From Candidatus Woesearchaeota archaeon (GTDB taxonomy: Archaea; Nanobdellota; Nanobdellia; SCGC-AAA011-G17; JACPIM01), in contig CAZELK010000004.1 of NCBI GenBank assembly GCA_964513145.1, forward strand, positions 6,961-70,960: 64,000 bases of DNA. The letters run 5' to 3'. The translations under genes and the position numbers were made by a program. The notes beneath the pieces were generated by a model that worked only from the letters and a program-made list of their open reading frames with translations, did not search any database and had not been told where the DNA came from. This document shows positions 19,522 to 23,006 of this stretch, in pieces; within the stretch, counting starts at the first letter, position 1; each line of letters starts with the position of its first letter.

Positions 19522-20196
19522 ATGAAAAAAAGAGATCATAGTCTGTTTATAATGGCTGGTGTTTTTATCTTGGTTATATCTGCAATTATCTCGGTTTATA
19601 AGAATGAATCAAAAGAAGAATTTCAAATAAATGCAGAAACATTTTGCTTAAATAATGTAAATTTTAAGATTAAAAGTGCTTGTATTGCCAATAGTAACTT
19701 GAAAGTAAAAATAGAAAATAATAATTTAAAAATAGAGGGTCTTAATATTATTATTCTAAATAAGACCATAAATTCTGATTCAGAAATAGACAAAGAAACA
19801 AAAGAAATAATAATTCCAATAGAAAATCTTAATTTTAAAGATATTTTAGTTTCAGCCAAAATTAATTTTAATAATAGAATAATTCAATGTAATAACTTTC
19901 AAGCATACAAAGATATAGATTCTTGTGATAAATCATGTTATGATAACACACCTTATAATAAATGTTCTGAAAATAAGCCTTTATTTTGTAATAATGGAAA
20001 ATTAATTGAGAAGTGTAAAATATGTGGCTGTAATAATAGTGAATTTTGCAATAACCAAAGTTGCTCTAATTGCAAAGAGAGCTGGTTCTGCGGCGAATTG
20101 TCAGAATGTATAAACAAAAAACAAACCAGAAACTGTTTTGATGCAAATAACTGTGGTACTACATTTAACAAGCCCTTAATTGAACAAAGTTGTTAA
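19522..20196 (+). CDS. Membrane-anchored Cys-rich surface protein
   Basis: N-terminal TM; C-terminal CxExWxC...QTRxCxDxNxCGT repeat-like module. Confidence 0.75.
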   Translation: MKKRDHSLFIMAGVFILVISAIISVYKNESKEEFQINAETFCLNNVNFKIKSACIANSNLKVKIENNNLKIEGLNIIILNKTINSDSEIDKETKEIIIPIENLNFKDILVSAKINFNNRIIQCNNFQAYKDIDSCDKSCYDNTPYNKCSENKPLFCNNGKLIEKCKICGCNNSEFCNNQSCSNCKESWFCGELSECINKKQTRNCFDANNCGTTFNKPLIEQSC

Positions 20197-20223
20197 TCAT
20201 TGAAAATTCCAGTTGTTTAAAAA

Positions 20224-20390
20224 TGACGTCCTCCACGCCATGAATGGCGTGGTTTCCAACAGAAGCATTAATCACTTCTGTATATAGTTCCTGAATCAAC
20301 GACAATAGCCAAAACTGCTGGTCTTACATTATCTCAAACAGGCGTTACTTTTCGCTTGTCCAGCGATAGACTGCTGATGCAGTGAATGAT
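20224..20390 (-). ncRNA. Putative TnpB omega/reRNA-like scaffold
   Basis: Several stem-loops, GCCTGTTTGAGATAATGTAAGACC segment, ends at right-end hairpin; TATA-like atttaaatat about 20405-20414 upstream on minus; 5' end approximate. Confidence 0.5.
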
Positions 20391-20584
20391 ATTAAAGAAC
20401 CAAGATATTTAAATGTTATTGTGATTCGGTGCTATTCAAGAAGTATTTTCGGAAGGTTTTCGGTTTCTTCGGAAAACTTGCGGGATTTATGAAAAGTTTC
20501 CGACATGAGATTAACTGCAGAAATTTTTAAGAATAAAAAATATACTCCAATTCATCCATGTTCTAAAGAACATGGTTTTCTTGG
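20224..20584 (-). mobile_element. Non-autonomous IS200/IS605-derived mini-element (no tnpA/tnpB)
   Basis: Subterminal hairpins ccacgcca-tgaa-tggcgtgg (20233-20252) and ccatgttc-taaa-gaacatgg (20556-20575) in IS605-like end contexts (…GGAGGACGTCA; CAAGAAAACC…GGATGAATTG). Confidence 0.7.
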
Positions 20585-21011
20585 ATACGACTGTCATAAA
20601 ATCAAAAACAATTCTTTCCGGGTTATTATTTTTGAGATCTCTTCAATGATTTTTATTTAAAATAATTCTTTAAAAATATAATATGAAAAGTCGCAGTAAA
20701 CTATTTGTAAACCAGATTGTTACTCCGAAAACGCGAGTTCGAATCTACAGGCAGAGCAGAAGAAAGGTGTTCGGTTCTCTTTATTTCTTGTTTCCAAATC
20801 TATAAAATTCCTCCCCTAATTAATCCCAGACTATATGTTGACCAATCTCTTTTATTTTTATACTTCTTACCAAGTTTTTATTTTTCATGAAAGGTTATCC
20901 TCCCCCAAAAATAGCAAGAAAAACTAAGATTTAAGAGTTACACAACACAGCAATTAAACAATAAAGCTTAAATAGTATATTTCTTCAAATTATATTAAAG
21001 GTTGATTTTAG

Positions 21012-23006
21012 ATGAAAATTTTTATTGGCTATCCACCGACTGTAACAAGATTTAAAGGTACTCCTTTATTGAGTCAAAACAGGCAATATCAAGTTTTTCA
21101 TGTTCATACTACTTTATTTCCTGTTGTTTTAGCTACTGGGGCAACAATGTTGCGTGATAAAGGCCATGAAGTTACATGGATCGACTGTATTGCTGAAAAA
21201 TTAAGTACTGAAGAATTTGATAAGTTAGTCGAAGAGAAAAAACCAGGAATTTTGTTTTTTGAAACAAAAGCACCAGTTGTAAAGATTCACTGGGATACTA
21301 TAAACAGACTAAAAGAAAAATTTCCAAACCTGAAAATTTGTGTAATGGGGGATCATGTTTCTGCAGTAGATTTATCATTGGGTTTACAAAAAGAATTTAT
21401 GGAAAACTGCAAAGTAGACTATATAATAAACGGAGGTTATTTTGATTTTGCAATTTGTGAATTAGTAGAAGCCCTATCTAAAAATAAAAAGATACCGCAA
21501 GGAATTTGGTATAAAGAAAAGGGGAAAGTTGTTGAAAATGGAAGATATAATTTTACTGGGAACTTAGATGATGCTCCAATTATTGACAGAGTTTTTACTA
21601 AAAATCATTTGTATCAGCATGAATTTAATTTAATTGGTCGTCCATTAGCCTATATAATGGCTGGAAGAGATTGCTGGTACGGAAAATGTACATTCTGTTT
21701 CCATCCAGATACAAAAATAACAACTAAAGAAGGAATTAAAAAAATTAAAGATATAAGATTAGGTGAAGAAATTCTAACCCATAATGGTAATTATTTCAAG
21801 AATAATTTTATTTTCCAAAGATATTACTCTGGAAAATTAATAAAAATAAAATCCCATAATTTACCAGACGAAGTAAAATGTACTCCAAATCATAAATTAT
21901 TTGCTATTAAAAGGGGAAAAAAAGAACCTAAGTTTATTGAAGCCGAAAATTTAGAAGTTGGAGATTTATTAACATCACCAATAAAAGAAGAACAAATAAG
22001 TAATTTACAAATTAATTCTAATAATTTAATGTTTGAAACTCAATTAAATAAAAAAAATGAATATTCAACATTTCCAATAAAAGAAATTAAAAAAGAAGAA
22101 TATTATGGTGATGTTTACAATATTTCAGTAGAAAATGAACATTCTTACACAGCTAATTTAATTGGAGTATCTAATTGCGTTTGGGACACTAATCTATATC
22201 CTAAAGGATCATTCAGAGGAAGATCACCAGAGAATGTAATGAAAGAAGTAAAGTATTTAGTTGATGAATGTGGTGTAAAAGAAATTTTTGATGATGCTGG
22301 AACAATTATTGTAGGTCCATGGTTAAAAAAGTTTTGTAATTTAATGATAGAATCAGGCTATAATAAAAAAGTAATTTATTCAGGAAATATGAGGTTTGGT
22401 GCGGTAACTGCTGATGACTATAAACTAATGAAACAAGCTGGTTTCAGATTATTAAAATATGGTTTAGAATCTGGTTGTCAAACTACAATTGATAAATTAG
22501 ATAAGGGTACAAAAATAACTGAAGTTGAAAAAAGTTTAAAAGAAGCTAAAGAAGCTCAATTAACAAATCACTTAACTATGATGTGTGGGTACAGTTTTGA
22601 AACTCGAGAAGATGCTTTAAAAACGTATAAATTAGCAAAAAGATTAATGTTAAAAGGTTATGCTGATGTTTTACAAAGTACTGTAATTATTCCTTATCCG
22701 GGAACTCCTTTATATAAAGAAGGAATGGAAAAAAATTGGTTCAGATTTGATCCTAGAGATTATGAAAGATTTGATATGCGTGAACCAGTATTTAAAACTC
22801 CAGATATGACTTCAGAACAAGTTACAAAATTAAATAATAAAATTTATTATATATTTATGGACCCGCGATATGTTCTTCGACATTTAAGAAAAATAAAATC
22901 TTTTGAAGATATTATGTATACATTAAGAGGAATAAAGGCAGTAGTAGGACATATACTAGATTTTAGCACAACCGCTCCAAAAGCAGAAGACAGCCCTATA
23001 AGATGA
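21012..23006 (+). CDS. B12-binding radical SAM protein containing a mini-intein
   Basis: N-terminal cobalamin-binding-like domain; CWYGKCTF|C motif completed after intein removal; YGLESG; PYPGTPLY. Confidence 0.9.
   Translation: MKIFIGYPPTVTRFKGTPLLSQNRQYQVFHVHTTLFPVVLATGATMLRDKGHEVTWIDCIAEKLSTEEFDKLVEEKKPGILFFETKAPVVKIHWDTINRLKEKFPNLKICVMGDHVSAVDLSLGLQKEFMENCKVDYIINGGYFDFAICELVEALSKNKKIPQGIWYKEKGKVVENGRYNFTGNLDDAPIIDRVFTKNHLYQHEFNLIGRPLAYIMAGRDCWYGKCTFCFHPDTKITTKEGIKKIKDIRLGEEILTHNGNYFKNNFIFQRYYSGKLIKIKSHNLPDEVKCTPNHKLFAIKRGKKEPKFIEAENLEVGDLLTSPIKEEQISNLQINSNNLMFETQLNKKNEYSTFPIKEIKKEEYYGDVYNISVENEHSYTANLIGVSNCVWDTNLYPKGSFRGRSPENVMKEVKYLVDECGVKEIFDDAGTIIVGPWLKKFCNLMIESGYNKKVIYSGNMRFGAVTADDYKLMKQAGFRLLKYGLESGCQTTIDKLDKGTKITEVEKSLKEAKEAQLTNHLTMMCGYSFETREDALKTYKLAKRLMLKGYADVLQSTVIIPYPGTPLYKEGMEKNWFRFDPRDYERFDMREPVFKTPDMTSEQVTKLNNKIYYIFMDPRYVLRHLRKIKSFEDIMYTLRGIKAVVGHILDFSTTAPKAEDSPIR
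21696..22175 (+). mobile_element. Mini-intein (160 aa, Hint only)
   Basis: Starts CFHPDTKI, block B CTPNHKL, ends VYNISVENEHSYTANLIGVSN followed by Cys+1. Confidence 0.9.

Follow-up and report, generated by a model that had tools for sequence, protein, structure and literature searches.

We identified a mobile element that lacks a protein gene in the window, a 64,000-nt stretch of DNA that is part of contig C4 of an archaeal genome (0.98 Mb in 18 contigs; archaeal SSU rRNA at 1354 bits). The element occupies positions 20223-20595 on the minus strand and is very probably a non-autonomous, PATE-like deletion derivative of an IS1341-type tnpB element of the IS200/IS605 family, working by the general mechanism proposed for such elements. 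The original prediction of an IS200/IS605 mini-element with both ends and no protein gene was supported by sister copies, homology, covarying structure and a tnpB-containing, parent-like copy. The predicted span of 20224-20584 did fall on the element, but its right end was shifted by 1 nt to 20223 and its left end by 11 nt to 20595. Two small ORFs (20505-20660, plus strand, and 20165-20305, minus strand; 46-51 aa) gave no match in Pfam and were not taken as genes, so that no protein-coding gene lies inside the element, as in a PATE. The GC content was 43% in the RNA segment matched by our covariance model vs approximately 28% on average in the window. The features of the element, from its left end (LE) to its right end (RE), are as follows.

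20223-20595, minus strand: protein-less mini-element, LE to RE, 373 bp, with sharp homology borders among the copies in this genome
20596-20600, minus strand: conserved pentanucleotide TTTAT, directly 5′ of the LE
20556-20575, minus strand: subterminal hairpin of the LE, CCATGTTC-TTTA-GAACATGG, between AAGAAAAC and ATGAATTGG; 8-bp stem, 4-nt loop
20443-20504, minus strand: interior of the LE with repeated CCGAA/TTCCG boxes, upstream of the putative promoter; kept in the copies of this genome and in the mini-elements of genome G132
20405-20414, minus strand: TATA-like box ATTTAAATAT, approximately 40 nt upstream of the first omega-RNA hairpin
20223-20370, minus strand: omega-RNA scaffold, 148 nt; matched by covariance model R1 at 141.9 bits (E 5e-30), all model positions covered
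20353-20365, minus strand: hairpin 1, CGCU-GGACA-AGCG (GGAC loop); compensatory changes at all 5 pairs in 32 distinct sequences, 98% of cells paired
20339-20344, minus strand: ACGCCU, 5′ strand of a long-range helix closing the scaffold; partner AGGACGU at 20226-20232 (RNAalifold consensus)
20259-20281, minus strand: variable hairpin ACAGAAG...CUUCUGU (helix 3); two variants among the copies of this genome, closing pairs covarying
20233-20252, minus strand: subterminal hairpin of the RE, CCACGCCA-TTCA-TGGCGTGG; 8-bp stem, 4-nt loop
20223-20232, minus strand: AGGACGTCAT, the 10 nt from the RE hairpin to the end of the element, closing in TCAT; identical or with one change in all RE copies of this genome
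20203-20222, minus strand: predicted guide TTTTAAACAACTGGAATTTT in the flanking DNA, assigned by its position beside the RE boundary; in the interval from the RE to the upstream gene's stop codon (20194-20196)

Four complete copies of the element (373, 388, 389, and 419 bp) were found in the genome, and they were 79-97% identical to one another (divergence 3-21%). The copies showed 81-88% identity to the window copy (E 1e-120 to 1e-145); their borders were sharp, and the DNA on either side was unrelated. The matches outside the window are listed below.

C5:41512-41915: copy, 88% identical to the window copy
C1:109993-110387: copy, 88% identical
C2:3272-3695: copy, 81% identical, with a 30-nt insert
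End of C2: incomplete copy, cut by the contig end
Ends of C7 and C9: RE pieces
Start of C17: LE piece

In the sense alignment, the homology of every copy began right after TTTAT and stopped after GTCAT, and further upstream of TTTAT the sequences were unrelated between copies. The tract occupies part of an intergenic region, with its RE hairpin 37 nt past the upstream gene's stop codon, as would be the case if it were no mobile element and consisted of chance hairpins or of the terminator and promoter region of the two flanking genes. The recurrence of the whole 373 bp at unrelated loci with sharp borders, together with homology to the ends of tnpB and tnpA elements from many genomes, including those matched by R1, refuted this reading, which we regard as vanishingly improbable. 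It is the repetition of the tract that excluded chance, and not the folds, which were z = -2.8 for the DNA hairpin of the LE and z = -2.1 for the RNA from 20400 to 20204, modestly better than shuffles. Since the copies differ by 3-21%, no very recent burst has taken place. Four contigs end inside copies (the ends of C2, C7, and C9 and the start of C17). The repeat is one cause of the fragmentation of this assembly, and the true copy number exceeds the four complete copies.

Directly before the LE, the pentanucleotide TTTAT was found in 5/5 mini-elements of this genome and in its full-length copy on contig C12; the intact metagenomic elements L163 and L164 and two G133 fragments with an LE showed it as well. 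It is presumably both the target site of TnpA and the TAM of TnpB. Comparison of the two flanks of the element revealed no target-site duplication, which is characteristic of the IS200/IS605 family. Two 8-bp hairpins with 4-nt loops had been predicted in IS605-like contexts, and both were present on the minus strand at 20233-20252 and 20556-20575. Their frames are similar (GAAAAC-hairpin-ATGA in the LE and GGAAAC-hairpin-AGGA in the RE), and the element thus has subterminal hairpins rather than terminal inverted repeats; in relatives, both hairpins are conserved and covary. The LE frame AAG(A/G)AAAC-hairpin(TTTA loop)-ATGAATTG was kept in elements of other genera and, in an approximate form, in an IS200-type element carrying tnpA. 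The RE hairpin presumably acts twice, as the recognition hairpin of TnpA in DNA and as the last omega-RNA stem in RNA. The minus-strand tract terminates in ...GGAGGACGTCAT at 20223, and GTCAC or GTCAT closes the right ends of related tnpB, tnpA, and mini-elements. As the final base of GTCAT is T in all RE-bearing copies of this genome and C in related elements, we concluded that this base belongs to the element. The element extends 10 nt beyond the RE hairpin, and 20 nt separate the TAM from the LE hairpin; IS608 has a similar end geometry.

A full-length relative was present on contig C12, with a 408-codon tnpB between an LE 92% and an RE-proximal stretch 96% identical to the mini-element. 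Its layout is TTTAT, the LE hairpin, a GCTTAAATATC box, approximately 30 nt, ATG, tnpB, and an RE ending in GGAGGATGTCAT, and its protein has relatives with the TnpB-typical domains PF12323, PF01385, and PF07282. Comparison of the two layouts indicated that the mini-element is a deletion derivative, in which the LE with the promoter box runs directly into the final ~25 tnpB codons and all that follows them. Further copies and a tnpB-containing parent had been proposed as the check on the original prediction, and the four complete copies, the C12 relative, and the matches in the genomes of relatives bore it out.

The predicted TATA-like box ATTTAAATAT was indeed found at 20414-20405 on the minus strand. 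It aligns with the C12 box, which is located ~30 nt upstream of the tnpB start codon, and is therefore a putative tnpB promoter box retained from a full-length copy, although boxes of this kind are frequent by chance in DNA of 28% GC. The repeated CCGAA/TTCCG boxes upstream of it were absent from L163 and L164; possibly they form an operator, where a regulator of the tnpB/omega promoter would bind.

The closest intact public relatives of the C12 TnpB were 74-77% identical to it (best 77%) and contained PF12323, PF01385, and PF07282. We read L163 and L164, whose intact TnpBs are 75-77% identical to that of C12, on their contigs: both begin at TTTAT|LE with the same hairpin frame, and L164, whose contig reaches the right end, ends in ...GGAGGACGTCAT. 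The C12 tnpB itself has an in-frame TAA at codon 38, where the relatives have Ser. The RE hairpin of C12 contains a GC-rich insert of 36 nt, and damage was considered as its cause. This was rejected, since the intact metagenomic elements carry the same extension, and the insert is thus a lineage variant. The middle of the omega-RNA region was variable as well: a unit of ~35 nt, GAACATTTTTGGAAAAAATCTTCACCAAAAA, occurs 0, 1, or 2 times per copy (C12:5560-5660, C2:128990-129105, and C2:3272-3695), and in the full-length element it encodes the repeated EHFWKK-SPK tail of TnpB.

Next to the copies themselves, homology of the RNA connected the mini-element with tnpB. The 3′ half of the mini-element could be aligned, block by block, to the 3′ termini of intact tnpB genes from other genera, which were found by a TnpB protein search in the order (52-58% identity). 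The common blocks were, in this order, the GGAC-loop hairpin, ACGCCUGUGGA, GUAAGACC, GAAUCAGGAACUAUA, the variable hairpin, UGGAAAC, the RE hairpin, and AGGAYGUCAY. A covariance model of 162 positions, R1, was built from four mini-elements and four tnpB ends. R1 detected six copies in this genome, the four complete ones of which matched all 162 positions at 142-153 bits; 35 of the 240 genomes in the order gave R1 matches, and many of these matches lay in mini-elements without a protein gene. At the 3′ ends of intact tnpB genes, R1 matches were found at G226:C32, G057:C66, G013:C64, G029:C42, G170:C7, G098:C87, and G061:C80. In at least seven genomes, and in C12 of this genome, the R1 match abuts or overlaps tnpB at its 3′ terminus, as would an omega RNA that runs up to the RE boundary. 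These results provided the similarity to a tnpB-associated right end by which the original prediction was to be judged. A covariance-model search had likewise been suggested; R1, built here, found the same RNA at tnpB ends, whereas Rfam yielded a sub-threshold signal only. No match was obtained in the whole window with Rfam at gathering thresholds or with a tRNA scan, and the sole signal of a permissive Rfam scan was HgcC (RF00062) at 29.3 bits (E 3.6e-4; 20335 to 20211), below its gathering score of 50.

The structure of the scaffold was examined in 32 distinct sequences. In total, 92.8% of cells were paired vs 39-44% in shifted controls, double changes were observed in 18 of the 22 pairs, and none of 500 shuffles scored as high; these values are to be read with the alignment being fitted to the model and the RE hairpin, all 8 pairs of which covary, being also a DNA signal for TnpA. 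Helices 1 and 3 are fully covarying and have no DNA role for TnpA. The long-range helix, which closes the scaffold next to the guide, was paired in 93% of cells and was mostly invariant, with alternation of G-C and G-U. In full-length elements, hairpin 1 falls within the last tnpB codons. Counted from a predicted start approximately 25 nt past the TATA-like box, the omega RNA would be ~160-170 nt long, which agrees with the previously proposed stem-loop tract of ~165 nt; the conserved scaffold itself is shorter, at 148 nt.

We inspected 13 further R1 matches, and the DNA upstream of each was compared with the TnpB of C12 by tblastn. No tnpB similarity was detected upstream of one of the two matches on G132:C39 and those on G057:C87 and C146, G166:C39, C47, and C74, G068:C39, G088:C24, and G043:C12. 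G132:C75 and the second match on G132:C39 showed only a short similarity to the C-terminal tail of TnpB, and G132:C80, a locus read separately from these 13, was also a protein-less mini-element. A recognizable LE hairpin frame was present in most of the inspected mini-elements. Their deletion junctions differ: in G132 the start codon of tnpB is fused to hairpin 1, and in the genome studied here the junction lies ~15 nt after the TATA-like box. Despite the different junctions, the mini-elements of both genomes kept the LE, the promoter, and the full scaffold. At least 12 RNA copies were found in G057 vs two PF07282 (TnpB) matches, one of which is at an R1-type element; G166 had five RNA copies and tnpB only as a fragment at a contig start; and G068, which is 96% complete, had one mini-element and no TnpB at all. 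Mini-elements outnumbered tnpB copies in G057 as well as in the genome of the window. Independent deletions that keep the promoter and the whole scaffold, and mini-elements in excess of effectors, would fit selection that acts on the RNA and not just on the ends, which is only suggestive, as a search model of the full scaffold under-samples mini-elements without a scaffold. As a separate observation, the mini-elements L145 (G043:C12) and L139 (G166:C47), from families f13 and f20, were nearly identical including their flanks over ~500 bp, which points to a shared mobile contig, a recent transfer, or mis-binning.

The ends are also common to elements that encode a Y1 (HUH) TnpA. A compact IS200-type element with tnpA only was found at G127:C30 (L168, 4500-5600; same family). 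Its RE ends in ...CTGGAAAC-hairpin-AGGATGTCAT, the same right-end type as in tnpB elements and mini-elements, and its LE frame is approximate (CAAGGAAAC-hairpin(TTTA)-GGGGAATTG). In addition, tnpA adjoins R1-type elements at G223:C14, G224:C60, and G124:C108. From this likeness of right ends and the adjacency, we concluded that the family belongs to IS200/IS605 and not to IS607. The tnpA of G127:C30 is a candidate for the cognate transposase of the family, judged from its ends. Y1 TnpA (PF01797) was present in 75 of the 240 genomes of the order, and none was found in the genome of the window or in its three congeners.

By analogy with IS608, ISDra2, and ISGst (PMC10055086, PMC8612924), we infer the following mechanism. 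TnpA acting in trans would move the element as single-stranded DNA into TTTAT sites. The retained promoter would drive transcription through the scaffold into the flank, giving an RNA of ~160-170 nt plus a guide, for which the ~16-20 nt after GTCAT would be used. A compatible TnpB made elsewhere could then load this RNA and cut the empty site left by excision (TTTAT plus guide), and recombination with a sister copy would restore the element.

A guide taken from the flank at the RE had been predicted before. Its position beside the RE boundary stood, and the start moved by one base, to 20222 (TTTTAAACAACTGGAATTTT). In the window copy, a T-run follows directly after the RE (CATTTTT). Archaeal transcription could end at such a T-run, and the guide of this copy would then perhaps be cut short. 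The guides of the copies in this genome had no second perfect or TAM-flanked match elsewhere in it. A regulatory (TldR-like) targeting role was considered and was unsupported, with no second TAM-flanked guide target in the genome. Searches of relatives with the joined flanks of the window and C1 copies gave no clean empty site. For the window copy, only the start of the downstream radical-SAM gene was matched; neither the upstream gene nor the spacer is conserved, and synteny around this copy is lost within the genus. In the case of the C1 copy, the G135 ortholog extends over the predicted junction by only a single conserved Ile codon, in a region of broken synteny. The C1 copy is inserted within the 3′ end of a gene (at G000:C1:110366-110386), where MTSSTP* from the right end of the element takes the place of the five final codons predicted for that gene, IKKCI*.

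The genome contains four tnpB-like ORFs and one broken one. Other resident TnpBs were examined as partners of the RNA and rejected, since, with matches up to E 1 admitted, R1 recognized nothing at the 3′ ends of the genes at C7:19164-20297, C7:14655, and C1:68786; the first of these proteins is 42% identical to that of C12, and the other two gave no match to it at E 1e-20. The sole cognate tnpB in the assembly, that of C12, is nonsense-mutated, and four contig ends break in copies. Given the premature stop in this gene and the lack of an encoded TnpA, the system in this genome looks inactive or decaying, and its action in trans here is doubtful. At present, a TnpB of this organism is rather unlikely to be making functional use of the window copy.

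The chance that the window copy is a genuine IS200/IS605 mini-element that has become inert, no longer mobilized and its RNA unused by any TnpB, and is drifting to loss, is slightly short of even. The missing TnpA in genome and genus, the nonsense mutation, the divergence of the copies by 3-21%, the single mini-element of G068 beside no TnpB, and the T-run at the RE border, which may shorten the guide, all argue for this loss of function. On the other hand, the scaffold is complete in 4/4 complete copies of this genome, over all model positions. Independent deletion derivatives in several genera keep the scaffold and the promoter, suggesting selection in a sample that is biased by the search model. 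Furthermore, the contig breaks inside copies (C2, C7, C9, and C17) mean that an intact partner could be unassembled.

Selection might also act on the RNA in ways that need no resident partner. We consider it improbable that omega-RNA-only mini-elements of small-genome archaea are kept under selection in this manner, either by TnpB and TnpA from another replicon (virus, plasmid, or host cell) or through a TnpB-independent role of the RNA. This idea arises from the several-fold excess of mini-elements over tnpB genes, the repeated deletions that preserve promoter and scaffold, and the genomes without an intact cognate TnpB (the one studied here) or without any TnpB (G068).

A domesticated small RNA with a TnpB-independent cellular role, for example antisense or read-through regulation of a neighboring gene, is very improbable. 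Transcripts of the window and C1 copies would run antisense into a convergent gene at its 3′ end, the mini-elements outnumber tnpB copies in this genome and in G057, and overexpression of a PATE-derived RNA and of an IS1341 3′-end RNA improved growth in Halobacterium (PMC4615843). However, the orientation and the type of neighbor are inconsistent among the copies of this genome. The elements are also non-syntenic between species of the genus, with none found by R1 in the congeners G133-G135, and their conserved parts are exactly those of the tnpB-linked scaffold.

Mobilized stand-alone omega RNAs that work in trans are known from the OMEGA discovery of Altae-Tran et al. 2021, according to its summary in PMC10691335. 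Similar to those, the element described here is a mobilized omega RNA with neither an effector nor a transposase gene, in a genome that also holds effector loci, so that action in trans would be expected. Unlike those, its host is a small AT-rich archaeon in whose assembly the sole compatible effector gene is nonsense-mutated, and the element is known from its sequence. PATEs, which often encode omega RNAs that need TnpB in trans (Meers et al., PMC10055086), have been described in Haloquadratum (PMC3119063), Halobacterium (VNG_R0052; PMC4615843), and Geobacillus stearothermophilus (PMC10055086). They share with the present element the LE and RE of an IS1341/IS605-type element and the absence of an ORF; in contrast to a bare LE-RE fusion, the family of the window keeps ~190 bp of LE interior with the tnpB promoter box and the CCGAA boxes, and it is a different sequence family.

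The permissive match to HgcC of Methanocaldococcus jannaschii covers the RE hairpin and GAGGAnGUCA, and in both RNAs a terminal hairpin with a UUYA-type loop is followed by GAGGAnGUCA at the 3′ end. The 5′ two-thirds align poorly, and at 29.3 bits vs a gathering score of 50 this is a related motif and not a member by the Rfam criterion. The HgcC tetraloop motif has been tied to IS1341 3′-end RNAs and right ends and to the PATE-derived RNA VNG_R0052 of Halobacterium (Gomes-Filho et al., PMC4615843). The element resembles IS608 and ISDra2 in its subterminal hairpins at both ends, in its insertion 3′ of a short motif, and in the omega RNA overlapping the 3′ end of tnpB in its family. It differs from them in lacking tnpA and tnpB, in its TAM (TTTAT) and right end (GTCAT), and in its archaeal setting with a putative TATA-type promoter.

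No description of such a stand-alone omega-RNA mini-element was found in the literature for this lineage. The concept of PATEs and of stand-alone omega RNAs acting in trans is already published, and the present case is a confirmation of these ideas and leaves them unaltered. What it contributes is a well-delimited family of archaeal omega-RNA mini-elements that stand alone, with the ends TTTAT ... GTCAT, in a host of ~1 Mb and ~28% GC, and a covariance model that also recognizes the RNA of intact tnpB genes across an order. For annotation, it accounts for GC-rich islands that would otherwise be unexplained ncRNA-like tracts in AT-rich MAGs and that break assemblies, and it may be of use in picking compact archaeal TnpB/omega-RNA pairs for study. 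The convergence of independent deletions on promoter plus intact scaffold, with mini-elements in excess of effectors, is mildly new.

Two further observations were made downstream of the element. The gene at 21012-23006 (plus strand) encodes a B12-binding radical SAM enzyme that is split by an intein, with Intein_splicing/Hint matches at residues ~225-385, between the B12-binding and radical-SAM parts. The non-coding stretch between the element and this gene, 20718-20793 (ttactccgaaaacgcgagttcgaatctacaggcagagc...), has 77-85% matches on unrelated contigs of two genomes of the same genus. It contains TTCGAATC, which is similar to a tRNA T-arm, with no tRNA or Rfam match there, and might represent a tRNA fragment or a further small dispersed element.
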